Virus record (IMG/VR): IMGVR_UViG_2919361683_000002
Location: 81,711-145,710 of that record
From: a virus
DNA: 64,000 bases
Strand: one strand, 5' to 3'
Shown: positions 1,921 to 61,429 of the stretch, piece after piece
How positions within the stretch are numbered: position 1 is the stretch's first letter
Layout: each line of letters opens with the position of its first letter
The notes under the pieces: model-generated
The model's input: only the letters and a program-made list of their open reading frames with translations
Database searches by the model: none
Told to the model about the DNA's origin: nothing
Program-made: the position numbers and the translations under genes

Positions 1921-4246
1921 ATGTACAAGGTAACGGTATTTGAGGAGGTATTGGATAATTTTGAGGCGAATATGTATTCGTTCGATGATAAAATAGAAAT
2001 GATTAAATTTGCTGCATTGCGTGAAAATGAAGGTGCAATGGTTGTCATGAGCATTGGTTTAAAACAAATTGTGTAAAACTATATTTTTATTACAATAACG
2101 AAAAAAATGTAAAAATAAAGGAGCCGATTATTATTATGAAAGTGAAATTGACAATTACTATCGAGATTGATGAGAAGAAATATCCTAATCTCACTAAAGA
2201 AACTATTCGGACAGAATTGCAAGGGAACTTTGATCTTTACATGCAGCAAGTCGAAGAGGAAACAAAGAATTTGCTTACAGATATGAATAGAAATGCATCT
2301 AAATGAGGTTTTGTTGGTCTCGATGAAGTTTGTGCTTTGCTGAAAGATTGAATTGAGCCTAAGGAAAATAAAATGATCCTTTTAGAAGGAGAGATTAATA
2401 ATGTCTCAAAGAAAACAATGGTTTGAAAAGTTCATTGGCTGCTGCTTTGGTATAGATGGTGAGGAATACATATTTCAAGGGACATTTACTAATACCGAAA
2501 CGAGCAGTGGCAAACCTTATCAGTATGTATTTGAAGCAGAGGGTAAACCTCAAGTCATCATGACATATAAAGAAGCTCGTACAACTATGGGAGCTATGAT
2601 TGATAAGTATAGTTAATCAAATGAATATTTTAAAGGAAGATAGAGTTAGGAGTGATACAAATAGCTGATATGGAGAAAATGATGAAATTGGCAAAAGAGC
2701 AAGGGATAAAAGTTACAGAGAATAGCGATCAGCCGGGTTTCTTTGTAACTAAAGATGGAGTTAAGAAAAGGGTTGGTACTAAAGAGTTACTCAGCATTTG
2801 TTTTGATCTTGAAAGCCAGTAAAAAGATTATTTCATAAGGGGGCGGAAAAATGTACATGATGTTTGTTTATGTTAACGGTGTAGCTCATAATCACATGGG
2901 GATCAGAGGAGACCTGGAAGAGTTACATGTGAAGGCAGCGGATATATCTAAAGAATACTTTAGAAAAGACTCACATGCTGAAATCAGCACAAAAATTACC
3001 AAGTATATTTGATAAAAGGATTCTTTGATCATGTAAAGTTGAAAAGAAGAGGTGAACAAATGAGTTTGGTTTTTATTAATGATGAAGATACAAGAGAGTT
3101 AATTATGAGTCTTCCAAGTATCAATATTAGAAGGTATGCTTCAGTACTGGGGGTCTATCATCCAAATGGAAATGATATCATCGTCCTGAAAACTAGGTTC
3201 AATAAAGTGATGACAGAAGAAATAAAAGAAAAAGATTTTGAAATATACTCAGACACTAAGCCATGGGGTTACGATTATAGTGAAATGGTATCAAAATTTA
3301 TAATTATAGATCGAAAATTATTAAATAAGCGCCGAAGCGAGAGAATTTTTGATAAGTATCAATAAATGAAATTGAATAGGAGTAATCAGATGAGTAAATT
3401 TGATTTATGGGAACACGGAATTGATTCGTGGACAGGGTATTTTATTATTGAGGCATTAAGTACAGCAGGGGAAAGCAGCCCACTATATCAAAAAGGGTAC
3501 GATCCTTCATCTATGGAAGCAAAATTAATTATTAATGGAGTAGACTTGCCATTAGCTAAAGTATTCGAACACATTGGTGGACAATTCGAAGATATGGTAA
3601 AGAAGAGGGCTGAAGGAATGATTGAGGATAAATTAGACAAAGATTTTATGGATTCACTTCGTTCAATTTCTAGATTAACAGATGAACTTGAAGATAAATT
3701 GAAAATAAAAATAAATAATATTCTTAGTGAATAGAAGTGTTTCTTATGAGGAGATGATCGAATGAATATTAATGAGAAACGAAGGAAGAATTACGAAGAT
3801 GTTAAGAGTCGCTTAAGTGAGATGGAACATGAAGAGTTTATGGAGATCATTGATAAGGTATTTCGATTAATTGAAGCACAAGATAAGAACCCAAAGAATG
3901 ACGATTTTGAATACTTCTTTGAACTACGTGGAAATATCGAACTCTACGAATTGTTGTTACTTGAGCTATCAAAACGAAAAAATCAAGCCATTGCTAACTA
4001 TCAAGATTATTTATAAAAGAAGTATTTTACGGGGAGGAGAGTAATATGAAAGACAAAGAAGAGATGCATAATCAAATACATGATAATTATTATGATGTAT
4101 ATGGAACTGTACCAAATGATGAACAGATAGCAAAAATAGTCGATTCAATACCAGACAAGATCAAAGCTTTAGCGATGAATTGGGGATGGTATGACACAGA
4201 GGTAAGAGAGAGTGTGTATGTGTGGATGAAACAAAATAAAAAGTGA
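1921..4246 (+). other. Array of small hypothetical genes (about 1921-2076, 2136-2306, 2401-2616, 2661-2822, 2851-3012, 3060-3365, 3390-3734, 3762-4016, 4046-4246)
   Basis: Each has a purine-rich RBS. Most are separated by TAAAA-N6-TTTTA or a variant. Confidence 0.7.
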
Positions 4247-4293
4247 GTAAAAGAGTATTTGATAATAAAAAAAGAAGCGACATAAGTCGCAAC

Positions 4294-14218: not shown

Positions 14219-15538
14219 GTGACGATATTGAAAAAAGAGAGAAGCGAATTAGAACAACGTCTAACTGAAATTGTTGAATCAAATAAAAATGATAAGAAAA
14301 GCATTTTAAAAATTAATGATCGTTTGAGTGCATTGGGAGTTCCATACGGAGAATATAATAAAATAATAATCAACACAAAACTGTTACAAGATACTGATAT
14401 TTCACTTATATGTGTGATTACAGAAGTATTGCAAAGTGTACTTGGTAATACAATAATTGATGTAATGGACTATTTTAGCCATAATGAAATAAACGAAGCA
14501 AAAGAAAACATTAAATTGATCTATCAAAAAGATTATTTAAAACTGCCTATTACTTTTGAAGACGTAATACAAATAGATGAAAGATCGTATTCTACAAAGA
14601 TTACTATACAGATGTTGGTACAAATGTTCAATTCTCAATTAATTAATTATGACCCACGTTCCCAACGTGGTATGAGATACAAAGGTAATACTCGCGATGG
14701 TGTAGTGGAGTCACCCATTGTTAACCAAACGAGTGTAAAAAAAATTGCTCAAAAAATTCTAAATCAAAGCTATCTTGCAGATACAATTACTTTTAATGTA
14801 TTCGCATACGAGCACCAACCTGTGACATATGATAAAGAAAATTATACTCTCACAATAAACGAAAAAAGTATAATTTCCATACTCGATGGATACCATCGTT
14901 TTCAAGGTCAAATTAAAGCTTTGAACACAAAAGAAGACATTGATTTTGTATCTCCTCTTTCAATAAGAGTATATGACAACACCACCGCAGAACAATATTT
15001 TGGTCAAATAAATACCATAAACCCCTTGTCCAAGGAAAGAAGAAAAGAACTACAAGCGGAAAAGAAGTCAGATAACGTGGTAAAAGAATTACAAAATAAT
15101 CCAAATAGTGAACTAAGAGGGATTAGAATTGCTTCTAGCAAAAAGGCAAATAAAGAAGTTGGTCAACTTACAACTTTCAGTATTTTGTCATTCGGAATTG
15201 AAAAAACATTTAACCCAACTAATTATGTTGAGTACAGAGAAGTCTCAGAATATTTAATTAAATTTTTTGGTTATTTAATTGGCTTTTATTACGACGAATT
15301 TATTGAAAATCCCAATAAACACACTTATATCAACAATCCTTTTATGTTCCTTGGGTATACGGTTATTGCTAAACGTTTTTACGATGAGAATAGAGAATTG
15401 AAAAGTTTGAAGAGTGTTGTAGATGAGATCAATTTTGAAGATAATGATTTGATTGAAATTCTTGAATCGAAGAGAATTTACGACAATAAGAAATTACAGG
15501 GAGAACTTATAAAATATTTTGAGCGCACTATAAAATAA
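14219..15538 (+). CDS. DGQHR/DndB (ParB-like) protein, SPbeta YopQ-like
   Basis: ISILDGYHRF motif; directly upstream of the YopR-like gene as in SPbeta; likely TTG start at 14228. Confidence 0.7.
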   Translation: MTILKKERSELEQRLTEIVESNKNDKKSILKINDRLSALGVPYGEYNKIIINTKLLQDTDISLICVITEVLQSVLGNTIIDVMDYFSHNEINEAKENIKLIYQKDYLKLPITFEDVIQIDERSYSTKITIQMLVQMFNSQLINYDPRSQRGMRYKGNTRDGVVESPIVNQTSVKKIAQKILNQSYLADTITFNVFAYEHQPVTYDKENYTLTINEKSIISILDGYHRFQGQIKALNTKEDIDFVSPLSIRVYDNTTAEQYFGQINTINPLSKERRKELQAEKKSDNVVKELQNNPNSELRGIRIASSKKANKEVGQLTTFSILSFGIEKTFNPTNYVEYREVSEYLIKFFGYLIGFYYDEFIENPNKHTYINNPFMFLGYTVIAKRFYDENRELKSLKSVVDEINFEDNDLIEILESKRIYDNKKLQGELIKYFERTIK

Positions 15539-15555
15539 CAAGAGGTGTCTTATTA

Positions 15556-16545
15556 ATGAACCGTATATATGGAGACAATCTATATAATCCAGATATAAAA
15601 CAAAGGTTTTTAGAGGGATATAGAAAAGCAACAAGAGGTAATTATGAAAGTAAATTAAAACGTGCAAGCAAGGTTGAAATGAAATACAACAAAGATTTGT
15701 ATAATTTTAGTTTGTCCGAAATCGAAGAGGTTATGTATTTGTTGGCTCCCAATAAATTGAGTTCGGCAACTATATATGGATCGGTAATTAAAAAATACAT
15801 CGAGTGGGCTATTTCTCAAGATCTTAGAGCTGATAATCTGAATCCACTTGATGTTGTTAATGGTAAGGAATTTTATGAAAAGTTTATTCCAAAGCAAATT
15901 CTTATAAGAGATGACGATCTTGAGTTAGCGCTTGGTAAAATTGATAGCAATAGAGATATTGTTATAATTCAAAGTATATTTGAAGGCATTCTAGGACGTG
16001 AATGCTCCGAAATCAGGAACTTGAAAAAGCAAGATATAAATCAAGCCAATGGGACAGTAAAACTGACAAACGTTGGACGATATGGGGAAGTGGAAGAACG
16101 AGAAATAGAGATAAGCGAATTTTTATTGGAAGCAATGCTTAGAGCCGATGAGGAGACAGCTTATAGCTCGAATTTCGGTGAAGGGAGTCTCAGTAATAAA
16201 AAAATCAGCAGCCTTAAAGACAGTTCTTATATCATAAAAAGCACTAAAGACGAAAAAGTTAAACAGACCCTTATATCTCAAACTATCACAAAGTTTGCTA
16301 CAAAGCTAAATATGGATAGATTGTCTCCAGTAGACATAAGGAATTCAGGAATGCTAAAAATGGCGAAAGATTTTTATGTTGATAATAAGGGTAAACTGGA
16401 GAGAAGCGATATACATGAAATAAGCAAAAAGTTTAATGTGGGCAGTAAAGATGGAGAGATCTTCTATACAACAATGTACACAAAAGACTTTTTAAATATA
16501 GAAACAATAATAAGAATATATCCAGAAGTACTTGAAGTAGAATAA
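15556..16545 (+). CDS. Tyrosine-recombinase-fold repressor, SPbeta YopR/MrpR-like
   Basis: LYNPDIKQRFL..., KYNKDLYNFS, YIEWAI, IFEGI.G...SEI.NL, LSP.DIRNSG match YopR as I recall it; the HxxR His is lost. Confidence 0.75.
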   Translation: MNRIYGDNLYNPDIKQRFLEGYRKATRGNYESKLKRASKVEMKYNKDLYNFSLSEIEEVMYLLAPNKLSSATIYGSVIKKYIEWAISQDLRADNLNPLDVVNGKEFYEKFIPKQILIRDDDLELALGKIDSNRDIVIIQSIFEGILGRECSEIRNLKKQDINQANGTVKLTNVGRYGEVEEREIEISEFLLEAMLRADEETAYSSNFGEGSLSNKKISSLKDSSYIIKSTKDEKVKQTLISQTITKFATKLNMDRLSPVDIRNSGMLKMAKDFYVDNKGKLERSDIHEISKKFNVGSKDGEIFYTTMYTKDFLNIETIIRIYPEVLEVE

Positions 16546-27299: not shown

Positions 27300-29171
27300 T
27301 TGCAAATGAAGTCAATTGTTATAGCTAAAAGACACAAGAATGAATTTTACATGGGAACTCATATTAGTTGGTATAGAGATTTATTGCCAAAGATTGATGA
27401 GGTATTGAAGTATGATTACGTATTAACTGACTCGCCGGGAGTTTTGCGCACAAACACCAAGAAACTTGAGGATATTGTTATTAAAGAAACTTTTGACTTT
27501 CATAGTTTATTGAAAGTAGGTGATTTTATTGAGGTTGATGAAAAAGAGTATGCAATTTCAAAGGTGAAACATGGTGCCGATGGGACGATGTACTATTATG
27601 TAAATATTGAATATGAAGACAAGGAAAGCAAAAAAGAAGCCGATAAGCAAATTGAATTGAGAAAAGCGTATTTGAAAGGAAGAGAGGATGAACGGCGTAT
27701 AAATCGAGAACTTCAACATGAAAAAATATTCAGCAAAGATGAGACAATATGTGAGAATGTACAAGTTCCAAAAACACAAAACGCACAAATAGCACAAAGA
27801 ATTATTGATTCGCTTAGAGGTAAAAAGAGTGAAATCAGAAAGAATACATATTAGTTGTTTTTTGTTTTGAGTCTGTAATGAAGTTTTACTAGAGGAGGTA
27901 CAATGAAGATTTATCACACACAAACCGCTAAAAATAAACAACATAAGTATCATATTTTGAGTAATATCGGTGAACGTGTATATCATTCACTATGCAACTC
28001 TGGGAGCTTTTGGGTGGGGGGATATCATAATGATAAGCCAGTAATTAACCCCAATTTAATTGATTTTGATAGTAATTATGCGAATGAACTATGTCCTTCT
28101 TGTGTATTACAAGCCTATAAAAAAGGAATGATTGGGATCTATGAAAGTCAGGGTGAACAAATGAATCAATTCACTAATCAAGAACTAAAAATGATAATTG
28201 ATCAATGCGACAGAATAGAAGAGGAATATGGAAGTATTCGAAGCAACTCAGAACGACTACTGTCATTTCAAATTGCACAAAAAGCAAATAATTTACTGGG
28301 TGAGGAATCAGTTGATCTTGAACATATGAAAATAAATTTAGAAGATATTATTAAGTGAAGTTTAAAACGAGCAAATAGAGAGGATATGGAAAATGGCTAC
28401 AGCAGAAGAGCGTGAAACAGTATGTGTCTGTAACGATGAAACAAATGAGTGGGAAGTGTATAGTTGTTCCCCTAAAACAATCACAAAAATCAAAAAGGCT
28501 GGTTTAGAACTGCTTCGAGTTGATGCAGATGGTGGTCACTATTTTAAAGGTGATTATGGGCAGGTATCATTTCGTACCAAGAGTAGTGGACGTAACTGGA
28601 CACCCGAACAGAGAAAGGCTGCTGCCGATAGAATGGCTAAAGCTAGATCAAATAAAAATACATAGGAAGTGGTTTAATGAAGAAATTAAAAGAGATTTTG
28701 TTTGGTTTAGAGAATTGTGAATCTTTATCGATTGATGCCAAATACATAGGAAATTTTAGTGTTACTAATGTTAGAAAAAGCATTATTCGACATTATGGCG
28801 ACATTAGATTTATGGATATATGCGATACTTTTTCAATTGTTGTTAATAAAAATGCAAATACAGACTATCAAGTATTTGGTGTGGAAGATGAAGGTTTTAA
28901 ACAAAACACCTTTGACCGTCTTACTAGTGGTGATATTGTTGTTATCGATATTGTGTACGATGATGACTCAAAGGATGAGGTATATGTCCATTGGGAAGGT
29001 GAAAGTGATTATTCAAACGAAGCTCAAAAAAATTACATAAGTAAACTTGGTGATTTATTCATAGTCATATCAAAGGAAGAAACAGTAGAGTCGATTTTTG
29101 AAGATTGGGGAATTGATAGTCAAGATGGATACATGGATTTAATGTGGAGGTCTAATCAAAAAATACTGTAA
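27300..29171 (+). other. Four hypothetical genes (27300-27854, 27903-28358, 28393-28665, 28677-29171)
   Basis: Co-oriented ORFs with RBSs. Confidence 0.65.
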
Positions 29172-29210
29172 AATAAGAATTTTACATAGAAAAAACCGAG
29201 CATGGCTCGG

Positions 29211-29564
29211 TTAGGAAACTTTCTTCACTTTGGGCAATCTTAATGAATGAAGCAGGTTGCGCTTTATGTATCTTTGATTCCTGCTCTGTTCGTAAGAGTA
29301 GGCAATATAACAATTTTTGAAATAATGGGAATGCTCTTTTGATAATTCAGTTATCCTTCTACTTATATTACATGAGGTGCTTACATAATCAACAACTAGT
29401 TTGTTGTCGCAATCATAAGAGTAAAAGATTATAATCCCAGGCCTACTTCCAATTTTAGAGAGATCGCTTTTCCAAGAGAGATGCTTAATTGTTGTTGCAA
29501 CATGAGCGTGAAAGTATTTGTTTTTAGGGTTCCAGAATTTTTCAACAGTAAAGATTCCATACAA
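29211..29564 (-). CDS. Reverse-oriented hypothetical protein (possibly GIY-YIG-like) with its own promoter and terminator
   Basis: TTG start with RBS AGGAGG; minus-strand TTGACT-16-TATAAT at 29620-29593; terminator at 29190-29212. Confidence 0.65.
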   Translation of the reverse strand: MYGIFTVEKFWNPKNKYFHAHVATTIKHLSWKSDLSKIGSRPGIIIFYSYDCDNKLVVDYVSTSCNISRRITELSKEHSHYFKNCYIAYSYEQSRNQRYIKRNLLHSLRLPKVKKVS

Positions 29565-30313
29565 ATTAATCGCCTCCTATATTGTGGCAATGATTATACG
29601 CTTTTAGTTTATAAAGTCAATATAAAATCGCAATTTTAGTTGAAGCAAATAGAAGCAATGCTAATTGCTTAGAAAGGAGTGGTTATATTCTTGGTTAACT
29701 TTTTTACTGGCACACTTCTTTTTATCATTGATTTTATTAATGTATTGGTAATTTACTGCGTGATAGGTCTTCTATGGACGATTGCAGAAAAAATATTTTA
29801 TGGCACAATCACACCTAGAACTATCGACGATATTGTAGCTTTTATTCTAGCTTGTTCTATTTATTTGAATCTAATCAAATAGAAATTTGATTAAAACTAA
29901 AGGAGCTGGATGTCTTGGAAAATGTATTAACAATAGTGTCAGGAGACGATTGGTCTTCTGTATATATTAATTATAATAAAGAATTTAGCGGTCATAGTAT
30001 TCCTGAACATGTTTTTATTAAATTAATTAATGATCATGTGCCAGAAAGAGCAGAAAGTTATTATATGATCCAGAATGGTCAAGAGTGGCTTGAAGATCAT
30101 GGTGATTTTCCTGATAACTTCAATGACATACCGAAAGAATATTTATCTAATTAAAAGAGGACTTTTATTAAGTCAAAATTAAACAACAAAGTTTTGATTC
30201 TTTTGAACTTTATCTTTCAAAAAGCTGGAAAAATGGAGCACTCTTCTTAAGTCGAACAAAAACAACAGAGAAAGACCACCTTATCAAAAAGGTGGTCTAG
30301 ATATTAAAAAATG

Positions 30314-30784
30314 TTACTTGGAAGTTGTAATGTTCACATTCAATGTTCCATCAATTTTTTTAGCATCAACTTTAGCTCCCAATACTTCAGAAACAATTCG
30401 CAATGGAACTTGAATGCGAGTTGCCGGACTTTGCGGTGCAACAAGCAAGGTTTTCTTTTCACCATTGACATACGCAGTTTTGCTACCGACCGCTAATTTA
30501 ATTACAGTTCCGTCTTTCGATTGGATGGTGACTTGTTGCAAAGCTTTATTCCAATCTGTTACTTTGCCACCTAAATTTTCAGAAACAAAACGAAGAGGAA
30601 CAAAAGCTGTATTTGTAGCATTATCAATATACGGAGGCGCATCTGAATTAGTTCCGAAATTAACGGGAACATTGTTTACCTCCACATTAATTGTGTAATT
30701 ATAAGGATGTTTTGTTGCACTGGCTTGTACGCTTAATGCAAGTGAAAAAATAAGAAACACAGAAACCATAAAGAATCTTTTCAT
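30314..30784 (-). CDS. Secreted copper-amine-oxidase N-terminal (stalk) domain protein
   Basis: Signal peptide; APPYI...TAFVPLRFVSENLG..V.W; VPLR.VSEVLGAKV. Confidence 0.85.
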   Translation of the reverse strand: MKRFFMVSVFLIFSLALSVQASATKHPYNYTINVEVNNVPVNFGTNSDAPPYIDNATNTAFVPLRFVSENLGGKVTDWNKALQQVTIQSKDGTVIKLAVGSKTAYVNGEKKTLLVAPQSPATRIQVPLRIVSEVLGAKVDAKKIDGTLNVNITTSK

Positions 30785-30815
30785 GATGTCTTTCTCCTTT
30801 TAATTCAAAGTACAA

Positions 30816-31976
30816 TCAATTTACTGAAAAGACATATCTTTCTGACTGCCCTGACTTGGTATAGTCTATTTTTCCTCCGTGAGTCCATACGTCGTTGCTT
30901 AACCCTGAGACGCTACTTGGGTAAACAGAACTGGAACTATTGTTAGTTAGAAATTTCATATTGTTCCAAATAGCAGGTGTAGTGTATCCATAGTGGAATG
31001 GGCTGGTGGTTGAAGTGGCAGAACCCATAGCTATTGCAGTTAGCCGCTTAACTGATCTACCTGTGCTTCCTAGTCCATTAAATCTAACAACATAAATATC
31101 CGAGTAATTTATTTGCTCTCTAATGGTGAGCGTTGAGTCTGTTGAGTAATAATATACTTTATAGCCGTTAATTTTGTCACCACCATAGAACTTTTTAGTT
31201 GTATCATAGTAATATTTACCACTACTAGGTTGTGGTATGCCATTGGTATTTCCTGAATCAACAGTATGATTTGATTTGGCATGGAACATTGGATACCACC
31301 CAGCTGGAGTAAACTGAGAAGCAATTCCTTCAAATCCAACTTCAGCTACTCCATCAACACCAGTGTATAAGTAGGCTGCCTCTGAATATTTCAAAGCATC
31401 AGTGATATTATAAGTTGGCAAAACAACAGAGTCTGCAACTACGCCATTATATATTTTATTAGTGTTACTAGCGGGAGTTTGAAGGCGATGGAATGCCCCT
31501 GTTTCTTTGCCTGCTGTGTTTCCTTGGTTACCTAAGTAAGATTGTGTAGAGATTCTTTCATGTGGTTCAGTTCCGTATGTAGATTCTGTAGTTGTGATTT
31601 CTCTTGTTTCAAAATTTGATCGGATATCGCCTTTATCGGAGGAGGTTGCGTTAATTAATTCTCCATCTGAATCGAAGTCTAAAAGAACAACTTCTGCATT
31701 TTCCAATTTTTTGATGTTTTCCTTTGTGGTTTGACTAATGCTAGAACTTTCTGTGATGTTGTCTAAAGTTTTATCGAATTCCTTATTGCTCAAAGTTGAC
31801 ATGCCTTTTGCAGTACTAGATGCACCTTTATCTAGTAAGATTTCTTGTTCAATCGCTTCTTTAATATACTGGTCATAGTTGTTGGGAGTAGCATTTTCTT
31901 GGGCATTTGCCATTAAAGAAGGGATTGATGCAGATAGGAGCAAAACAGATAAAGCAACTTTGGCTACTTTTAACAT
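30816..31976 (-). CDS. Secreted YrpD/neprosin-like protein
   Basis: Signal peptide, acidic linker, then GAFHR...LPT...AYLYTG...EVG...GWYP. Confidence 0.5.
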   Translation of the reverse strand: MLKVAKVALSVLLLSASIPSLMANAQENATPNNYDQYIKEAIEQEILLDKGASSTAKGMSTLSNKEFDKTLDNITESSSISQTTKENIKKLENAEVVLLDFDSDGELINATSSDKGDIRSNFETREITTTESTYGTEPHERISTQSYLGNQGNTAGKETGAFHRLQTPASNTNKIYNGVVADSVVLPTYNITDALKYSEAAYLYTGVDGVAEVGFEGIASQFTPAGWYPMFHAKSNHTVDSGNTNGIPQPSSGKYYYDTTKKFYGGDKINGYKVYYYSTDSTLTIREQINYSDIYVVRFNGLGSTGRSVKRLTAIAMGSATSTTSPFHYGYTTPAIWNNMKFLTNNSSSSVYPSSVSGLSNDVWTHGGKIDYTKSGQSERYVFSVN

Positions 31977-32151
31977 AGTATATCCTCCTTGATATTGGGT
32001 TTATATAGTAAGCTGGCCAGCATTACTTCCCAAAAAAACTTACTGAAAAAGTATAATATGAATAAAAATATATAGCAAGGAAAAGTTTTGTTACTATTTA
32101 CTAGTATAAAACATAGATTTTACCATAATACATACAAAAGGATGATAAAGT

Positions 32152-34507: not shown

Positions 34508-36437
34508 TGACTATAAGTGTGCCAATTGAAATTATCAGAAATAATAAAACTCAGGAGTTTGTAGAGCTGCAATTAGTGTATGAACGTTTAGACAACGAAT
34601 TACAAAGATATGCTATAAAACTGGAAGAATTATATGTTGAACTTAAAAGGATAATTAGTCCAACTGATCGCTATGGTCATTCATATACTTATAACTACGA
34701 ATACTTTAAAGAACGCAAAGCATGGAGAGAAGCCTTGCTTATGCAAGATGCGATTAACGAAGTCGTGAATGTTGAAGGTGAAATTCAAGAAGTAAACGCG
34801 GCATACATAGAAGTCAGAGAGAAACTTAGAGTTATTTATAGGAAATGTGGTATGACAGATGTGGTTATTTAAGTGGTGGCTACAAGCAACCGGGTTAATG
34901 TTATTAGTAGGATTGTTTATTGAGCTTCTATTGTTATGCAACCCCTCTTTGAAAATGCCGTACAGTCACTGGTTAATTGAAAGCATGATTTTGTTTATGC
35001 CCACTTTTTTAGGAGTATCACATTATATTCATGTACGTGTAAATAAAAGAAGAAAGAAGTGATGGATTTGAAATAAAAATATGCTTTATTCGCTTTCGCT
35101 GCGTATAGCGAGGATGGAGGGATCAGATGAATAAAACAATTAGAGTTAGTGGACGCATTTCAAAGGATGCAGAAGGAATTCTGCTTGGTCATAAGGTTCT
35201 TGGTGAATTTATAGTTAATGAATTAACGCACGAAGAATTTCCTAAGTATGGTGAAAATCGCTATTCTGGTAAGGACAGCAATGGAATATGGAAATTTTAC
35301 AATCACCCATTAGCCTTCGTTCAAATTTATTTAAGCAACAAAGAAATTACATATGAAGAGGCCATTGATTATCAAATCTTGAGTTCGATAGGTGAGCTGG
35401 ATATTCAAGTGGATTGGGTGGGTTATTCTGAACTAACAATTTCTTACTTCAGCACAGAGCACATGACTGTAGGTGGACATGATATAGAGAAGATCTTGTC
35501 TTCATATCTTGGTAAGTATGCAATAGTTAATATTGAAATAAAAGACAAACGCTAAGTGTCGGTAAAATGCGTGTTTGATTAAGAATTTTAATGTAGTAAA
35601 ACTAGAGGAAATATGAGGTGATTAAAATCAAAGTTAACACAAGCAGTATTTGTTTGAAATGTACACATTTCTGGCATGAATGTGGAGATGTAGCCCAACA
35701 GGATGAATACGAATGTATTGAGACTTGCAGTAATTCAGATGAAGCTGTTCAAGAATTTTTTGAGGATGAGCATGAAATAAAAGAATGTAGAGGATTTGAA
35801 AGTGAATATTAATTAAAGTTTTCTTAAAAATGGGAGGTACTGAATGGATTTAGATTTAATGAAAACAGAATATAAACAAGTGAAATTGGATTATAAGACT
35901 GTATTGTCTAAAACGGCAAAGTTGAGCATTAGCGAAGAGTTAAGAAGATTAAAAAAGAAAATTGATGATGAAGAACGTAGGCTGAATGCCGAACTAAAAG
36001 CTGTAAACATCAATGGAGTTAATTATGAAGTCCCAAATGGATTTGGTTTTTATCGAGAAGTTGAGGGTTATACATATGAAGTAAAAGACGAATGTTTATA
36101 TAGATTTGAAAAAATGAATTTGGGTTCAGATGGAAGTTTTCACTTGCACCACCATGTATGGATTCCACAGAGAAAGGATAAATTTGTAGATCTCTGTGTA
36201 CGTGTTCTGGGTGGTGACAGGTTCGGAGAAAGATACTTTATAAGTGCAAGTTACTATAAGCATCCATCTGATTCGTTTCCATATATGCATAAGGATGTTC
36301 GGACTGACAATTACGGATACAAACCCATCTATTCATATGTTATTGCTAAGATGGGACTAAAGCATAAAAAGGATAATTGGGACACTAATAAGCTTGAGTG
36401 GATTGAAAAGGAGAAGAGAAATGAAGCAGAAAAATGA
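34508..36437 (+). other. Hypothetical gene cluster (34508-34872, 34859-35062, 35127-35555, 35618-35812, 35844-36437)
   Basis: Co-oriented ORFs with RBSs. Confidence 0.6.
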
Positions 36438-37252
36438 ACAAAGTATTTATGTAGTACAAGGGAGAAGTGGAATTGTATTTTCCGCAACTTTAAATTACGA
36501 AGAAGCCTTAAATGTTATGAACAATTTGAATGAGATGGAATACGGTAGAGCCAGAATGGAACATTGGGAAAATAATAGAGTTGTGCTTCGGGAGTCGTGA
36601 TAAATTTATGCAAAGGTGGTGCCAAAGTGGATATTGACACTTGCCCATATTGTAGTGGTAGGCCGTTGGCAGACAGAAAGCCATTAATGAGAAATCATAG
36701 TGCAGACTATTCAGTTTTCATTAATAGCTGCAATTATCTAGAGGATAGTGTTATTGGTGGAAGCGAATTTCATTCATTGTATGGAGTGAAAATATATTTC
36801 TGTCCTGTGTGCGGTAGAAGACTGTAGGTTGATAAAATACATACTTTTTCAATTGAGTAATTATAACCGATATTAAAAAAGTATAAAACTAAGAAGGGAT
36901 GATTATATTGAAAATCACTGGTAAGCATGTTTGCAATAGTAGTTTCAATGATTGTAATTACGAATACAATTGGGAGGCGCAAATCTCACAACATGTGTCA
37001 TCGTCATCTTTTGAAGTAGAATTAATTGATGAAAATAAAGCTCAAGCATCAATTAAATCAAGTGATGATGGCGAGTTTTATGAGGTTAAAACCATCTGTC
37101 CAAGATGTTATCAGGATAATTTATTCAGATATCCAAAATCTCTAAACTAAAAATATACCACCTGATCTGTGTCAAATATTCTAAACTTCTCATTTTTACA
37201 GATCGGGTGGGATCAAAATAAAATGAACATTTTAATATAAAGGGTGACAAAA

Positions 37253-41015: not shown

Positions 41016-44000
41016 ATGAACAGGGATATATTTAGAATTCATATGGATTATCGTAATCTTGAAAATGATTTATATTTTAAACTTGAGAAAGAAATTGGTG
41101 CAGAGAAAGCAGATGAACTTTTGGATGCATTCATGGAATATAGGGAACAATATTTGAAAATCGGTAAATACTTAGATGAAAATAAGTATATCGGAAAAAT
41201 GGGATATTTATCAAGTCAGTTTGAGGATTTTGAGAGATATCTTAGAGTAGAAGTTATCTACAATTATGAAGACGGGTTTTCATTATGCGAAACTACGACA
41301 GGATTAATTAAACTGGTACCGACTGAATTAATTAGTTTTGAAACAGAATAAAACGAATCTTTTATTGAGATTGGAGGCATAGAGAGTTGATTAGATTTAT
41401 ACTTACAAGCAAAAAAGATAAATATGACAATGCAGAAATTATTACTGATATTGATAAACCAACTATTAAATTCGAGTTCACAAAATGGCTAGAAAACCAT
41501 GTAGAAGAGGGTTCGTTTTCTGATTATCTGCGAAATAAATTCCCGACAAAAACAATTATTGATTTAGATGATATTGAGGATAGTAGCTTTGAGGCATAAG
41601 GTTATGAAATGTGAGTTTGATTGAGAAGGGACTGAATATTGAATGTGGAAAAAATATCTTAAAGATGAAAATGGCGACTATGGTTTTGTGAAGTTGATTT
41701 CTGATGATTACACGACATGGAGAGAAAATGCAGAGGTAATCCTAGTAGATCATTTTCCTAAGGTAAAGGATGGCGAAACAAAAGTTTTACTCTCAAGACG
41801 AACAATAAGATTTACGCAGTTTTTTGGAAGTGGGGATATAGAGGAAGAGTTTGAAGAATTAAAGACAGAGTATGTATTGCATTATGGGAAAGAACCGACT
41901 GATGTGACCGATATGGCCTTTTTTTGTGCAGATGGTTGGTCTAGATGGAGCGCTGATGAGCGTATTGAGAATCCATCAGAAGAAGCCATAAAAGAATATT
42001 TGAAGAAACATGGTGTTTTAGATAACTATAAGTAAAATATGACTTTTATATTAAAAAAATCATACGAATTATTTTTGGTGGGAGATAGATGATGAAAAAG
42101 CTAATGTCTGATCAAGTCTTTTTGCCTCTAAAGATGTGTATTATAGCTTTAATATTATTTAGGGCATATTACTATTTCAAAGGCTATGATTTTGCCTACT
42201 TCAATGCTATAGCTTACATATTTGCTGGGTTCATACTTTACTCATTACTTCGAGTGATTGCCAACTTTTTATCGTTTAATCCTGATAAAATCAACTCAGA
42301 TCCCTATTTTATGAGTAGCGCAATTGACAAAAGAATAAAAAATGAATTATCACAATATCATTTACTAGAGAATAGAATTGGAGTCTTTACTCAGAGTGTA
42401 AAGTATGATCCAAATAGTGGAGTCCAGTTGTATTATAATGAGATCGAACATCCTGAGAAGCTGTTCTCTAAATTAGAGGCATACGAAGAAGTTCTTAGAG
42501 CAACCGGGACATACTCTGCTGAATTAATTATTGGTAAGATAAGACTTTATAAAGAGCAACTTGATGTAATGATTAAGTAAAACAAATATTTTACGAAAAA
42601 TAAGAGAAGGGGAATTCAGATATGAAACTATATGAGGAAATACTCAACTCAGACACAAAACTTGTTGAAGCTCTCAAGTATGCTGCTGAAACAGAAGGTG
42701 TTCTCAAATTTGTTAGTTACGAACGTATAAATGAATACAGACAATTAAGTAGATTGGGTTGCATTGATTTAGAACAAAAAGGACTTAGTGGTGGGGTAGT
42801 TTATTTAACCCAAGAAGGCAGGGATTATTTAGATCAAAACACCTGATGTCTTCAATGAAATAAATCGTACATTTTACGAGAAGAAAAGAGGTTGGCTAGA
42901 TGAAATATAAAAAGGCAACAAAGAGTTTTATCAAAACTCGGTATTACTATGAGGTAATAATAAATATCCATGTTGAAAACAGCGATAAAGAAGAAAATAT
43001 TACTCGTGATCTAATCATTACTTCAGAAGAAAAAATGACAATTGATGATTTACTTCAAGAAGCAGCTAACTCCATTAATGATATGGTTGAAGAAAAAAGG
43101 GATTTCTATCAGTATAATCTAGTGCAAGTTACTGGGTTGACCGTAGTAGGAGCATATGACCGAAAATTGTAACACAATAAAATTTTCCTTTACATAGAAT
43201 ACAGAAAGGAGCAACAATGAAAAATTTACAGGAGAGTGCTTTTGCATTATTCTTGCTGTCCAACTGTGCCTTTGGTGATCGGTTGGCGTTGAAAGCAGAC
43301 GAATATGGAACAGACTTAACTCCAATATCCAGAGGAATGTGCAGAGTAGTTAAGGAAGTGTATGACACCGATTTTTCTGTTTTCTCTAACCTTGGTACAT
43401 ACAATTTTATTAGAAAGCAGACTCAAAGTAGTAAATTATTTAAGCAACTAGAACCCTTTCTTAGTTGTTATTACATTCGCAAAAACAAAACTAGAGTGAT
43501 TTATATTGATTTCTCTCACGACGACAAAATCAAGATTCATAGTTTGTTAAGAAGAATTGCTGCATACTCTGAGTTAGAATTAGACGAGCTTAAATCAAGT
43601 TATAAGAAGTATCTCATCAAACATATGGCAATCAATGAACTTCAAGCCCATGAACAGTTAATGTTTTTTGATAGGGTTAATTACAGAGACTATTTAATGC
43701 CACAATTTGAATGTTTGTAAAATCTTTCTTTTACTAAGAATGGAGGCTTAGGTATGCAGAACGAGAACAAGCATATGGTTGAAGAGTGCTATGATGCTTT
43801 AGAATGGGTCATAATTCAATTTAAAAAAGTTCTATCTGGAGAAGTCGCAGGGAATGTACAAGAAAGCCTATCCTATGCTGAATCAATCCTTAGAAACAGA
43901 TAAAAGTTTACTTTTACCACAAGAGAGGAGAGACATGCAACAATATCATCTATTCAAAAAACTCAAGTCAGAAACATGGTGTTGGTATAACGAGAAGGAT

Positions 44001-49628: not shown

Positions 49629-50702
49629 ATGAGCAATGATCTGAAGTTAATAAAGGAAAGAATCATAGAGGAATCAAGGGTTGGAGAACTTTTAGAAGCA
49701 ATGGGTTGCGAATATGTAGAAAAAAAGAATAATCGCTACGAGGCGCAACTCCCCCACAAATTTGAATCGCCAAATAAAAGATCAGTTCAAGTTTATTTAA
49801 ATGAAAGCCTATCAAGCAGAATTAGGACGCTTGGAGAGTCAGACATAGATATTTATGGATTAGTGTCTTATATTGTTTTTGATCAAATATCGGAAGATGA
49901 AAGACAAAGAGGACTACCTAAAGCTAAAAGATGGATATGTGAACAATTAGGTTATAAAGAATTTTTAGACAACAACTATATACCTCCACCTAGTTTAATC
50001 CAGCTTGATTGGCTCAAGGATGTTAGACGGAAACGTAAGAAAAAAAGAGAGTTAAATAACCTTGAAAACGACACTTATGCTGACGAAATATTGAATCAAT
50101 ATGTCATGTACCCTCATCAATTTTATCTAGATGAGGGGGTGTCATGCGAAATACAGCGAGAATTTCAAATAGGGTTTGATTTAAGAAGTCAGCGAATCAT
50201 TTTCCCCATACACAATCGCTTTGGGGATATAGTATCTATAAAAGGAAGAACCATATTTAGTGATTATGAAGAGAAAAATATATATAAGTTCTTGTATCTT
50301 ATCAACTTCAATAAGATGATTGAGCTTTATAATTGGCATCGAGCCTTGTATTACATATTAGAAAGAAAAGAGATATTGATATTTGAAGGTGAAAAAACTT
50401 GCTGGTTAATTAGTCAATACGGTCATCGAAACTGCGTTGCTATTAGTGGCGATGATCTAAGTGAATGGCAGGTTAAGATGATAAAAGAATTAGATCATGA
50501 TGTAGAGATAGTTATAGCGTTAGATAAAGACAAGCCAGTAGAAGCAGTAAAAAAACAAGCAGCTAAGTTCGGGAAAACTAGAAATGTGTATGCCTTATAT
50601 GACAATAGAAACTTGTTTAAAGATAAAGATAGTCCATGTGACAGAGGGGAAGAGGTATTCAATATTCTTTATACAGAGTGTAAATACAAAGTATCAGTCT
50701 GA
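49629..50702 (+). CDS. DNA primase (TOPRIM, YorJ-like)
   Basis: RIIFPIHN..G.IVSIKGR; IFEGEK; IALDKD; KDSP.D. Confidence 0.88.
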   Translation: MSNDLKLIKERIIEESRVGELLEAMGCEYVEKKNNRYEAQLPHKFESPNKRSVQVYLNESLSSRIRTLGESDIDIYGLVSYIVFDQISEDERQRGLPKAKRWICEQLGYKEFLDNNYIPPPSLIQLDWLKDVRRKRKKKRELNNLENDTYADEILNQYVMYPHQFYLDEGVSCEIQREFQIGFDLRSQRIIFPIHNRFGDIVSIKGRTIFSDYEEKNIYKFLYLINFNKMIELYNWHRALYYILERKEILIFEGEKTCWLISQYGHRNCVAISGDDLSEWQVKMIKELDHDVEIVIALDKDKPVEAVKKQAAKFGKTRNVYALYDNRNLFKDKDSPCDRGEEVFNILYTECKYKVSV

Positions 50703-50735
50703 GTAAAATATAGTTTTTACTCAGATTATTTTTTT
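50699..50735 (+). terminator. Terminator hairpin built around a TAAAA-N6-TTTTA copy
   Basis: CTGAGTAAAA-TATAGT-TTTTACTCAG followed by a T-rich tract. Confidence 0.65.
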
Positions 50736-50872: not shown

Positions 50873-53800
50873 ATGCATGAAGAGCAACCTGCAAATCTTA
50901 TTCCTACGGAGAATATAGATGAAGCAACTCATGTTTTTATTGCAGACAAGAAATTCAACATCAAGACCACGGTGGGTAAGTTTTATAAATTATACAGATG
51001 GGAGGCAAACGCAAGTTCATGTGGTGTAGCTGAAGCATATATTATTGATGATGAAGGAAAAGATTCAACGGGGTTCATGTATTATTGTAAAGCTAAGTTT
51101 TATATACAAAAATAAATAATAATACATATAAGAGGTTGATCATAGATTATTCATAGCCAACAACCTCTCAAACTCTCAAACTCGTAAACAAGCTTGTAAA
51201 GGTTGGATTTTATATAAAGAAAAGGAGACAAACAAATGAAATTTTACAACCCTGGATATTCTAATAATCATCAAGTGAAAGTTACCCTAATGTTTGAAGA
51301 TTATAAAGGAGCAATAATATATGAAGTTGGAGGAAACACAATGGGGAGTTCAATCCTTAAGACGGCTATCAGTTCTGTAGCAGACGGAGATTTTATTCCC
51401 ATTGAACATGAACTCAACAAGAAGCATATTAACAGCGTAGATGAAGCTGGATATATTCAGGAAGTAGTATTGTTTAATGGTAAGAAAAGAGTACTAATAG
51501 ATATTGGAGACGTTGAAGATTCTATCATTAGTGCTGAGATCATTTCGTATAAAATTGAAAAATAAATAAAATTTGAATTTTAAACAAAAGTTAAGGAGAT
51601 CGTCAATTGAAAACAATTAAATTCAAAGCAGTCAATTCTGGTGATGGAGAGTCTTTTTGCTTCGATATTGATAGGGAAACTTTTACGCTGATTACTGGAA
51701 GAGAACCAGAGGACTGGATGGATTATCAATCAGGAGAATACGTAGAACAAGACGATGAACTGGTGTTTGTTTCAAGTGATCCAAATAAATGCAGGGTTTA
51801 TCCAAATGATATTTTTGGTCGTTCTGGCGAGGAAGTTGAAATTGAAGTGAAGGTAATAACTCTGTAATTCAAGTAAAAGAAGAGTTTTACTAAGACATAA
51901 AAGGGGATATGAAAATGAAAATAAATATGGAAGATGTCATTAAGCTTATGAAGAAAACAGTAAATGATAACTGGCTAAATCCATCAATGACAACAGTTGA
52001 TAACTACGAAAGAGCAATTACGATTCTATCAGGTAATAACGATTATGAGGGCAAAGAAGAAGATTGGAAGGTGATTATGCACTATATTAATGATTTTGAT
52101 GATTTTAAAATCGACAATGTGTATCAGATCATCTACGAACATCAACCCTTCCACTTCATGAAGGTTATGAACTAATGTTTTACAAAGAAAGGCGGTGTCG
52201 TCTTGGTGAAATTTTGGAATAAGATTTGGCTTCGTAGTGATGATGAAATAGGCGAAATGCTTATGTTCCTTCTAAAATGGTCTGTTCTAGTTTGTCTAAT
52301 CATTCTTACTATTAGTGGAACAGTTAAGGCAATGCAACTTCTATTTTAAAATAAGTGAAAAGGTGAGAAATATGCTTTGGGACGCAATTAAAGAGTATAC
52401 AAAATTGATAAGAAATAAAATGAATATAAAATGGTTACATATTGCTCTGCTAGTCGTTCTCAATATGATTGTGACTTCACTATTAACGGATAGAATTTCA
52501 ATAATTATTTGGTTGCTAATTTGGCTTGTCACAGTGCCACCATTTGCAGGTTGGTATCTTGCATGCCACAAACCAAAAAAGAAAGATGATAAACAAGCCA
52601 TTTAGAAAAGAGGATTATACATATGAACATTAAACAGGCGAAACAAACAACTGAGGAATTAACAAAATTACTTTGGAAATTAAAAATTATTAGTTGGGAT
52701 GAAGTTTTTGGGCATCTGCCCGATAGCAAAGAAATTGAAGAAGAAGTTGATGAAACTCTGAGAAGATTATCTAACGGTATTGAAGACTTAAAACAATTTT
52801 TTGAATAAAAATATACTTTTACATAGTTAAAGGAGAATAATCTATATGCCTAAAGTAGCATTAGTGAAACATAATGGAAGTTCAGTTCTTTACGAATTCT
52901 ACACTGATCTAGATTTAAAAAAAGGTGACTTGGTAGTTTGTGAAACCCACAGAGGATATGAAACAGCCAAAGTGGTAAGTTGTAAGGAACACGAAAAGTG
53001 TAAGGCAACGAATTGGATTGTTTCCAAGGTGGACACCAAGAGCCATACAGAACGAATACAGAAAGAAAAACGGATTAGTTATTTAAAACAGCAAATTGAC
53101 TTGAGAAGAAATGAATTTACTGATGAATATATTAATGAGTTGATTTCTTTGAAAGATAAAGCGATGTATTCTCTGCTTAAAGAGTTTGATGAACTAACAA
53201 ACAAAAATAATACCAAGAACGAAATTGAACTAAAAGATTCATTTTATTTTAAAAATGTAGCTGGCGGGGAATTTCTTGCAGTCAAACATAACGAAGAATA
53301 TGTTGTTAAATCAGCCTTTTCACCATCTGTTTTTAATTATTTTACTGTTAATCAAGTACGATACTGGATTCGAAATGGTAACTGGAAGGTGATTGACTAA
53401 TGGAAGGAATTAATGATTTTTGGATTAGCACGAAGAAGATATACACTGAAATTCGAAAAAATAAAATCTTGTACTTCTTTACGAGAAGAAAAAAATACAA
53501 GGATAAGATAAATTGTTTATACGAGATTATCTCGAAAAGAAAAGGGCAATTTTTCAAAATAAGATGTAAATATAAATACTAAGATAAAAAGGGGAAAATA
53601 TACATGCAATTTTTTAAGATTAAAAAAGGTACAAAGTATCATGAAGCAGTAAAACAACATCTGACCCTACTTCCAAAATGGAAGCCGATTTATGGGAAAG
53701 TAAGTGAATTGCTCAACGAGAAAATTACACGAATGGTTCAAACCCCAAACTACCTTCAAATTGAATACTCAGAACTAAAAAAAGATGAGAACAAGAAAGT

Positions 53801-59592: not shown

Positions 59593-61129
59593 TTGAAATC
59601 TAACATAATAATTCCTGAAACAATTAAGGTTGGCTTTCAAGATAGAGACGACACATACACCAAGAAACTAGCTTATGTAATCTATTATGATCATAAAGGT
59701 GTTTTAAGAAAAGAAGCTTCATGGAATAGCTGGAGAGATAAAGATATTCCTGATTTATCATTATCAAATGTCCCAACATCAGGCTTTGTGCTAAATAAGA
59801 AAGCTGGCGGATATTCAAGTGGCTGGAATCACCGCCAAACCTACATAAGAGTGTATGACCCAAGAGATTTTGAATTTGAAATTAGTGTGTTCAACTTACT
59901 ATACATATTAGAAAATACCAACTCTATTAAAGGTAAAGGTTTGGAAGGTGAATTTGTTTATGGTTGGGATGGTAAAGAATTAGTATTACTACCTATTGGT
60001 TCTCCTGACTATCACGAAATTAACTCTTTCAATAAGATTTTGCAAGATAAAAATTTTGTTAAAACAAAAGACTTGATCATCGGTGCTACATATAAAACAA
60101 AAGACAATCAAGAGTGGATTTATATGGGGAGATTCGATTTAAAAGATACAAAATCGGAGAGAGTTGAAGACGGTAGATCGAACGATTATTGGAATAGACC
60201 ACAATACAAATATACCTATCACAAAATTTCAAAAGGAAAGTATCATTTCTTTGTCAGAGAAGCAGAGTATAGTTGGGGCGAAAAATATAAGTCTTTACTA
60301 ACTCTAAAATCTCTTGGAGAAAAATTTATTGATGTTGTATCTAGCGAATGTGTAAGCAATTATTCTGATTTATTTGACTGGCTGGAACGACAAACAGAAT
60401 ATTCCCACAGAGATGAATCAAAGGATGAGTGGGTTAATTTCTCTTTTCAGGAATTTGAAAGACATGTGAATAGCAAAAAATTTAGAGATGATCGTTGGGG
60501 TAGCGAATTCAAATTATACTCTAGTCCTGATGAGCGGGAAACAATCTACTATGATATAAATTCTAAACAGTTCTACAACGCTGGAAAATGGATTAAAGAA
60601 AAGATGGATTACGAGAAGATATATATTGGCGATATCACAAAGGTTTTTAATCAATATTCACCAGTTTATAAAAATGAATATTTAGAGAATGGAAAAATAT
60701 ATCGGAGGATTAATTAGAATGGCAAATAACAATGATCAAAAAATTCTTGAACTAAAAAAGCAGATTGAAACCAAAAAGAAACAAATTAGCAAGTCAAAAA
60801 AGTTTTCTCCAGTAACAAATTGCTCAATTGAGTTGGATGGGATCAGACATAACATTCAAGTGTTAACGAAAGAACAGGTCATCTCTTTAATGGTTAAACT
60901 TAATTCATATGCTATGTCGGCAGATAATTTGGGACTATTACATAATTACACTATTAGCGGTTTTAATGTAGCGGAATGGATCGATGATCTAAAGTCTAAG
61001 CTTGAGTTCATGTCCAGAAAAGAAGAAGAGCTAAAACTTAAAACAATGGAATCAAAACTTGATAAGTTGCTCTCAAATGATAAAAAAGTTGAACTCGAAA
61101 TTAGTGAAATTGAATCATTGCTTAATTAG
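59593..61129 (+). other. Coupled pair of phage hypothetical genes (59593-60717; 60719-61129)
   Basis: Adjacent stop/start; long open frames; palindrome variants at both outer ends (59551, 61129). Confidence 0.7.
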
Positions 61130-61171
61130 CAAAGTTGTATTTGATTAAAAATTGTAAAGGAGAATGTTGAA

Positions 61172-61429
61172 GTGGCACTTTACCGTAAAAAACCTGTAGA
61201 AGTTGAAGCATTTAGATACTGGATTGAAGATAGACCCGATTGGTTTTGTGATAAAGTTTCATCAAACGATATAATTACTCACTCTACTCATTGTGAAATC
61301 AACACACTTGAAGGCATTATGCGTGGAGAAGTTGGTGATTACATCATCCAAGGTGTTAACGGAGAAGTTTATCCGTGTAAACCAGATGTATTTGAGAAGA
61401 CATATGATTACATAAAAGAAATTTATTAA
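61172..61429 (+). CDS. Conserved phage protein (PGDYG-like)
   Basis: YRKKPVEVEA...TLEG.M...GDYII.GVNGE.YPCKPD.F.KTY. Confidence 0.75.
   Translation: MALYRKKPVEVEAFRYWIEDRPDWFCDKVSSNDIITHSTHCEINTLEGIMRGEVGDYIIQGVNGEVYPCKPDVFEKTYDYIKEIY

Follow-up and report, generated by a model that had tools for sequence, protein, structure and literature searches.

How does a single gene come to lie backwards in a large prophage, with its own expression signals and with an exact palindrome on either side? The question is raised by positions 29169-29638 of a 64,000-nt stretch of viral DNA (hereafter the window), which corresponds to bases 81711-145710 of the 176,963-bp IMG/VR provirus record IMGVR_UViG_2919361683_000002. 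The 177-kb prophage belongs to a large SPbeta-like phage with Paenibacillus as its host; the GC content of the window is ~33%, and the + strand carries almost all genes of this part. An earlier note, made from the sequence alone, described a reverse-oriented expression unit in this interval and took it for a mobile unit with symmetric ends. Comparison with relatives points to a different relationship between the unit and its borders. With a probability of about two in three, the unit is a moron-like cassette that occupies one slot in a scaffold of palindromes owned by the phage backbone, and it is moved by recombination ending at both sites rather than autonomously.

The cassette would comprise one gene, the open reading frame (ORF) ORF117, with its own sigma-A promoter, ribosome-binding site (RBS) and terminator; it runs opposite to the early genes around it. 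All of the components listed in the earlier note, from the motif at 29169 to that at 29623, are found in their places (Table 1), and its remark that the unit fills the interval almost exactly also holds: the palindromes are separated by 438 nt (29185-29622), of which the unit takes 29188-29620, so that no more than 3 nt at its left end and 2 nt at its right end remain free. The predicted promoter has 11 of 12 consensus matches and is the best match of the region in a pattern scan, and the terminator folds with -18.3 kcal/mol (z = -5.5). At the level of sequence patterns, the arrangement is thus that of a moron, with a putative promoter and terminator of its own around a single gene between backbone genes. 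The left palindrome (site 1) supplies the TAA stop codon of the upstream gene, 28677..29171. Relative to the cassette promoter, the right palindrome (site 2) covers about -38 to -53, the usual place of an UP element or activator site, so that a protein bound at site 2 could control the cassette. The GC content of the cassette is ordinary (0.34 vs 0.33). A second copy of the unit was not found in the prophage genome, and neither a transposase nor a recombinase was found to be encoded by the unit.

To whom the palindromes belong is decided by the relatives, which were collected through the two flanking genes (164-aa and 67-aa) and through the cassette protein. Five loci contain the slot (L003 in genome G1, L004, L005, L006 and L021). 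The whole window was also compared with the close relatives G1, G2 and G3, to which 51%, 40% and 32% of it, respectively, has any nucleotide homology. A blastn search of 27900-30200 against the phage collection gave no match. The nearest copy of the cassette is in a Paenibacillus polymyxa chromosome (the prophage of L006), and a further relative is found in Paenibacillus sp. PvR008. Homologues of the 164-aa gene, with 84-98% amino acid identity, are present in all five slot loci, and each is followed by site 1 with the same centre. The slot after this gene is filled differently: the window and L006 have the reverse ORF117 unit, L003/G1 has a forward gene of 263 aa, L004 a forward gene of 236 aa, and L005 and L021 a Rha-family forward gene. 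The three alternative forward genes are unrelated. The cassette is present in L006 and absent from the otherwise syntenic L003/G1, L004, L005 and L021.

The borders of the exchanged DNA lie at the palindromes. In the comparison with G1, homology stops at 29192, 8 nt after site 1, and restarts at 29622, 1 nt before site 2. Four public runs (two of DNA, two from RNA libraries) yield contigs with the same joints, 429 nt being replaced by 803; these contigs are not independent of the G1 comparison because all four carry the G1-type allele. The earlier note had staked its reading on relatives lacking the gene breaking homology at the motifs, and this is where they break it. In five loci the 67-aa gene is preceded by site 2 with the centre TCGCAA; the left neighbour of the site is another one in every locus, and homology begins at the first base of the site. 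In L006, site 2 follows the cassette and has another right neighbour, and homology ends at the last base of the site. The different left neighbours in the five loci and the different right neighbour in L006 together make site 2 a junction on both sides. Site 2 is identical in G1/L022, L023, L024 and L006, and site 1 is an identical 16-mer at the syntenic place in G2, G3 and L006, with one arm mismatch in the G1 copy.

Because the palindromes stay when the content changes and are linked to backbone genes, they are not the symmetric ends of the unit. The earlier proposal therefore survives in one part, a replaceable unit with its borders at palindromes, and fails in the other, that the unit brings these palindromes as its own ends. 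They are 2 of 64 copies in the genome, and copies also stand around ordinary forward genes. The palindromes would instead belong to the phage backbone, each copy with its own 6-base centre. Close relatives have kept the copies letter for letter and in order, with exchange of the DNA that separates and adjoins them. The cassette would have reached or left its slot by recombination with end points at the two sites, in crosses between related phages or prophages. The crossovers themselves may occur within the sites, as the positions of the joints suggest.

Table 1. Coordinates of the cassette, its borders and the candidate recombinases (window coordinates except where G000 is given)
Feature	Position	Strand	Remarks
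164-aa gene, no family	28677..29171	+	Conserved upstream backbone gene; from ORF list
Junction palindrome, site 1	29169-29184	.	TAAAATAAGAATTTTA, TAAAA-TAAGAA-TTTTA; read from sequence
Intrinsic terminator (predicted)	29188..29212	-	Stem 29212-29194 (8 pairs, 5 GC, loop 3), TTTTTT tract 29193-29188
ORF117, 117 aa, TTG start	29564..29211	-	From ORF list
RBS AGGAGG	29578-29573	-	Spacing of 8 nt to the TTG start (29564); read directly
Predicted sigma-A-type promoter, TTGACT-16-TATAAT	29620-29593	-	-35 at 29620-29615, -10 at 29598-29593
Junction palindrome, site 2	29623-29638	.	TAAAATCGCAATTTTA, TAAAA-TCGCAA-TTTTA; read from sequence
67-aa hydrophobic gene	29679..29882	+	Downstream backbone gene; travels with site 2
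YomM-like tyrosine recombinase	G000 35862-36908 (outside window)		Phage_integrase, 75 bits
YopP-like tyrosine recombinase	G000 60278-61327 (outside window)		Phage_integrase, 42 bits

The palindrome is an element of the whole genome and of a wider group of phages. Its core is TAAAA-N6-TTTTA, mostly preceded by a purine and followed by a pyrimidine. The 177-kb prophage contains 64 copies of this core, compared with ~3 expected; in the window, TAAAATNNNNATTTTA with at most one mismatch occurs 27 times (2.8 expected). The arms are invariant over 5 bp each, with weak purine/pyrimidine preferences at the adjoining positions, and the N6 spacing is the only one enriched: all other spacings from 0 to 12 yield 0-6 copies each. 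SPbeta has 30 copies in 94 kb (1.7 expected) with the same strict N6 spacing. Enrichment is also seen in Goe14 (13 copies in 41 kb), in the Psychrobacillus phage Perkons (8 copies) and in the Geobacillus virus E3 (14 copies; 41 kb each). The host chromosome is not enriched, and in a related lysogen at least 40 of the 86 copies lie on a 155-kb prophage contig. Approximately 80% of the copies are intergenic. Such a copy as a rule touches or includes the stop codon of the gene before it, with the start codon of the following gene 10-40 nt further on. A pair at a distance of 454 nt, as around the cassette, is nothing special in itself: the window contains 11 neighbouring site pairs less than 800 nt apart, most of them around forward genes. 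No description of the palindrome was found in the searchable part of the SPbeta literature.

The individual sites are conserved beyond their flanks. Of the 36 exact sites in the window, 24 recur as identical 16-mers in G1, 23 in G2 and 25 in G3, in perfectly colinear order. The control 16-mers were conserved at 8-16 of 110 positions for RBS regions, 4-11 of 103 for stop regions and 9-75 of 400 for random positions, and of the 16-mers that adjoin the sites on either side, 0-7 of 36 are kept; the difference between sites and RBS regions has a Fisher p of 1e-8 to 4e-13. Among the 69 identical-site pairs there are 17 for which both genes next to the site lack a protein-level homologue at the corresponding side in the relative. 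Conserved site pairs that enclose unrelated DNA include 42033/42578, 51567/51874 and, in the comparison with G3, 29169/30152, which contains the cassette. The intervals 42033-42593 and 51567-51889 each hold a single forward gene between sites whose 16-mers recur in G3, and in G2 as well for the second pair; the DNA between these recurring sites in the relatives is unrelated and of different length. For segments with an identity of 85% or more, breakpoints are over-represented at junctions with a site (21/31 vs 33/109, odds ratio 4.8, p 3e-4).

Several results weigh against the preferred reading. About half of the 200 pairwise indel or replacement events touch no site, and breakpoints are common at gene junctions that have none. 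Most of the breakpoint enrichment is gone after stratifying by intergenic length, and identity steps at sites are no different from those at other junctions (n=9 usable cases). The site centres are not common with SPbeta beyond chance (2 identical vs 0.7 expected), nor with Perkons or E3. Since they are not common with SPbeta, the conservation of centres in Paenibacillus could stem from recent ancestry of the scaffold, with the flanks replaced, instead of selection; it could simply reflect recent common ancestry. Three expectations of the earlier note also came to nothing. An empty site joining the genes at 28677 and 29679 was found for this cassette in none of the viral contigs, GTDB genomes or public runs, and the unit was not met in inverted form, with no inverted homologous segment of at least 150 nt between palindromic copies among the four genomes. 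Nor was a circle junction of the unit found, the matching public runs all carrying the G1-type allele, which lacks the cassette. To these are added the moderate quality of the fold model of ORF117 (pLDDT 63.8) and the lack of a Pfam match at threshold for this protein, both described below.

Several identities that might be given to the palindrome were rejected. It was at first assumed to be SPBRE, the operator associated with the promoter regions that carry MrpR (YopR) ChAP-seq peaks in SPbeta (Kohm et al. 2023, PMC10516654), as a MrpR/YopR homologue is encoded at window 15556-16545 (PF22822, 86 bits), directly after a DndB-like YopQ homologue. The six examined SPbeta promoter regions with peaks share a different, AAATATGTATA-type word, and the palindrome is present in only 1/6 of these regions, upstream of aimR. 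The word common to the six promoters (L027, SPBc2 record 40001-90000) is of the type ACAAA(A/T)AATATGTATA; at aimR it lies just upstream of the -35, and it would give SPBRE a sequence that is not spelled out in the searchable text of that paper. An RNA element does not fit a folding energy of only -4.6 and 0 kcal/mol at the sites, the lack of pairing covariation and the lack of an Rfam match; the positions flanking the arms pair less often than independent positions would. A part of a sigma-A promoter or an UP element was discarded because no hexamers (-35/-10) are conserved upstream at any fixed distance. A promoter-like site is found within 150 nt of only 14 of the 56 copies in the early region, at no preferred position, and 42/56 are without a strong one. 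The YonO promoter is also rejected: YonO starts its late operon at one site upstream of yonK (PMC5467207), and the motif is found mainly in the early region. A host-factor site does not agree with the lack of enrichment in the host chromosome.

What could carry out the exchange? One possible answer, to be held tentatively, is a dedicated site-specific exchange in which the palindromes are the crossover sites of a phage-encoded enzyme. The candidates are orphan tyrosine recombinases (YopP-like and YomM-like) that SPbeta-like phages have in addition to a serine integrase, or an activity that cuts and rejoins within the variable centre. The geometry agrees with this, with two 5-bp inverted arms around a strict 6-bp centre; sites of the Xer/dif type have a comparable geometry of inverted arms around a 6-bp centre. 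From the symmetry at the level of DNA and the spacing, which equals one turn of the helix, a dimeric protein that recognises duplex DNA is a candidate reading, also favoured by the weak RNA hairpins and the missing covariation. The letter-for-letter conservation of centres in close relatives, with both flanks replaced, would likewise be expected of crossover sites. The two recombinases each have, by eye, a complete R-K-HxxR-H/W-Y signature, which makes them candidates, and come in addition to the MrpR homologue, which is of the inactive type. For the YopP-like protein, a phmmer search against PDB gave nothing at E 1e-3.

Further points for a site-specific mechanism come from gene content and from another cassette. 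The motif co-occurs in SPbeta, Perkons and E3 with the same trio of integrase, DndB-like and MrpR-like genes, and the function of the extra integrases of these three phages is an open question (PMC13245101). The window has, as these phages do, a DndB-like (YopQ-type) gene followed by an MrpR-type integrase-fold gene (14219-16545; PF22822). In SPbeta, Perkons and E3 the pair is preceded by the YopP-type integrase, and here the YopP-like gene lies elsewhere (G000 60278-61327). At 4030-4247, the window has a cassette between two near-identical sites where G1 has a single hybrid site and no gene, which is an empty/occupied pair for a cassette other than the reverse one. In the window (4014-4250), a 66-aa gene (4046..4246) lies between a site, TAAAAGAAGTATTTTA, and a decayed near-copy, TAAAAGAGTATTTGA.

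If such an enzyme acts, identity of the centre would restrict exchange to sites of the same position, and cassettes would be swapped without scrambling the gene order. Taken to its conclusion, this suggests a position-addressed exchange of cassettes in SPbeta-like Bacillales phages, a speculative idea at present, in which the unique centre would limit crossover to the same-position site in a co-resident relative. The catalyst would be the extra YopP/YomM-type tyrosine recombinases or a cut-and-ligate activity in the centre, and the unit at 29169-29638 would be a swapped cassette caught in reverse orientation. Against an enzyme of this kind stand the 5-bp arms, which are short for a tyrosine recombinase, the half of the exchange events that have no site, and the absence of inversions between palindromic copies in the four genomes. 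Some junctions also lie beside the site, not inside it, or show microhomology only.

A less likely explanation is that the palindrome has a purely regulatory or architectural role, as the binding site of a dimeric phage DNA-binding protein such as a roadblock, an insulator or a nucleoid-type factor. It would then coincide with module borders only through the intergenic spacers in which any viable exchange must end. The symmetric arms, the spacing of one helical turn and the lack of covariation suit a bound dimer, and the restriction of the motif to the phage, with no enrichment in the host chromosome, is also compatible. Candidates are encoded among conserved DNA-binding proteins, namely the HU-like YonN homologue and the DndB-like YopQ homologue. 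The large share of the breakpoint enrichment that is explained by intergenic length, together with the many exchanges without a site, fits this explanation. It leaves unexplained why relatives retain the exact 6-base centre of each site while adjacent 16-mers are lost, and why sites persist when both neighbouring genes are replaced. Nor does the motif keep a fixed distance to sigma-A promoters, with most early-region copies (the 42 of 56 given above) lacking a strong promoter-like site nearby, and it is not the MrpR operator.

The product of the cassette raises a third explanation. Homologues of ORF117 are few (76% and 43-45% identity; only ~5 clusters) and come from Paenibacillus and from sequencing-run contigs; in other contigs, relatives adjoin resolvase or recombinase genes. 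In the comparison with the L006 copy, the ratio of nonsynonymous to synonymous divergence (dN/dS) is 0.53, which identifies ORF117 as a coding gene. No Pfam, PHROG, NCBIfam or PADLOC match was obtained at threshold, and a profile search against PDB sequences gave no match; in relatives, sub-threshold matches to PF01541 (E 0.028) and TIGR01453 (E 0.016) are seen. Atlas protein-language features assign GIY-YIG with a score of 0.95. A single-sequence model was unusable (predicted local distance difference test, pLDDT, 39), and a six-sequence AlphaFold model reached the moderate value cited above. Of the top 10 Foldseek matches of this model in PDB, 9 are the UvrC GIY-YIG domain (E 7e-3 to 3e-2, TM up to 0.66 by target) and the one at rank 8 is a plant Grx domain; the matches in the AlphaFold database are dominated by GIY-YIG clusters.

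The catalytic residues are kept in part. In an alignment of family members (A1), compared by eye with the UvrC pattern, the Tyr of GIY is replaced by I/L/M/V in all aligned full-length members and the Tyr of YIG is kept in 3/4 aligned members. Residues R70, E92 and N103 are invariant. ORF117 probably has a GIY-YIG-like fold without the first catalytic Tyr, a prediction of moderate confidence, and its product is possibly an accessory nuclease, a nuclease remnant or a degenerate homing-type endonuclease.

A homing-type selfish gene is accordingly among the alternatives, albeit an improbable one. ORF117 would be a free-standing GIY-YIG homing endonuclease or its remnant, spread by cutting cassette-less alleles near the slot and copied in during repair, and the palindromes would be incidental. 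The predicted fold, the intergenic position with its own promoter and terminator, the presence/absence polymorphism among syntenic phages and the neighbouring resolvase or recombinase genes of its relatives would suit such a gene. The protein has only 117 aa and no DNA-binding domain, and the GIY Tyr is missing throughout the full-length members. Alleles without ORF117 hold other genes in the slot, not an empty target. The divergence is also opposite to the prediction of co-conversion, as the gene is more diverged than its flanks: the synonymous divergence (dS) from the L006 copy is 0.20, compared with 0.04 for the flanking gene. This fivefold difference suggests a mosaic history inside the cassette. 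At the nucleotide level, ORF117 is 88% identical to L006 6001-6354, and the flanking gene, the terminator and both sites are 98-100% identical, with 100% for the terminator; the promoter-plus-RBS segment is 94.8% identical.

The weakest alternative, an autonomous mobile or invertible element with the two palindromes as its termini, has the close fit of the reversed unit between exact palindromes in its favour and is largely refuted by palindromes that stay when the content changes and are each linked to backbone genes in several relatives, by the different centres of the two sites, by the lack of a transposase and of a target-site duplication, and by the lack of an inverted copy in any relative or a second copy in the genome.

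The reading of a moron-like cassette within a backbone scaffold can also be set against systems already described. The closest are the PeSL cassettes of T4-type phages and the dif modules flanked by pdif sites. PeSLs (Arbiol et al. 2010, PMC2839356; Comeau et al. 2014, PMC4122927), for which mini-circles have been shown, are likewise short conserved motifs repeated in the variable parts of a large phage genome, where they separate small accessory genes, with single ORFs between two copies and with indels or replacements between close relatives that end at the motif. The latter feature is shared with the present palindrome, its enrichment being confounded in part by the length of the intergenic spacers. 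Each PeSL combines a strong sigma-70 promoter with a stem-loop terminator, and recombination between PeSLs is homologous, whereas the present motif is a 16-bp AT palindrome that contains no promoter, has none at a fixed distance, forms no stable hairpin or stem-loop terminator, and has a variable centre conserved by position.

The dif modules of Acinetobacter plasmids, which are flanked by pdif (XerC/XerD) sites (PMC6449649), similarly hold accessory genes in varied contexts between short sites with inverted arms and a 6-bp centre. Inverted arms at a fixed spacing of the 6-8 bp type are found here with N6 only, and recombinases with apparently intact catalytic residues are encoded. The arms differ: pdif arms are 11 bp long and bound by host XerC/XerD, and arms of the Xer/dif type have ~11-13 bp, compared with only 5 conserved bp per arm in these Bacillales phage genomes, weak purine/pyrimidine preferences aside. 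The sites here also form an ordered scaffold and do not travel with the module.

Other systems are more distant. Like a moron, the cassette places one accessory gene, with a predicted promoter and terminator of its own, between two backbone genes, and close relatives lack it. Classical morons of lambdoid and temperate phages, known from Juhala et al. 2000 and Hendrix et al., are usually co-oriented and often of deviant composition. The present cassette is unlike them in being reversed, in its ordinary GC content and in borders that coincide with a repeated junction motif. Integron cassettes are similar in that small genes form an array with imperfect palindromes between them and single genes are gained, lost and replaced. 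Their attC sites are folded single-strand substrates of 57-141 bp, one per cassette, with IntI encoded next to attI and Pc, and the cassettes are promoterless and co-oriented. The site here is symmetric and 16 bp long, the cassette is reversed and has a predicted promoter of its own, and no IntI-attI arrangement was seen. Insertion sequences and miniature inverted-repeat transposable elements are not matched either, as the sites remain when the content changes, the unit is single-copy and there is no transposase. SPBRE is alike in being a repeated intergenic element of SPbeta-like phages and has a different sequence.

SPbeta-like phages carry more than 100 small accessory genes with unexplained turnover, and the cassette offers a clean case: the same two marks enclose a reverse, self-contained gene in two prophages and three unrelated forward genes elsewhere. 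If the sites are true crossover points, these phages would have a built-in means of trading single genes with the gene order kept, and the "extra" tyrosine integrases of SPbeta, Perkons and E3 would gain a role. If they only bind a protein, the palindrome would nonetheless represent a regulatory or architectural element not described before and conserved in phages of four host genera. The idea is testable in a model system, as the SPbeta prophage of B. subtilis 168 has the same motif. The relationship of the present prophage to SPbeta extends over many genes at 25-56% identity, including terminase, portal, YonO RNA polymerase and HU-like YonN as well as the YopP-like and YomM-like integrases, the YorL polymerase, a ligase and others.

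Two further features of the window involve the palindrome. Downstream of the cassette, a two-gene minus-strand unit (30152-32122) is bounded by sites at 30152 and 32107. One of its products is a 156-aa Cu_amine_oxidN1-domain protein whose N-terminus is signal-like; the other has 386 aa and no family. The unit is present in G1, and in G2 and G3 homology restarts exactly at 32107. At 50695-50735, a longer hairpin (CTGAG ... CTCAG) with a T tract behind it carries the palindrome in its loop, so that the palindrome is embedded in a terminator-like structure.

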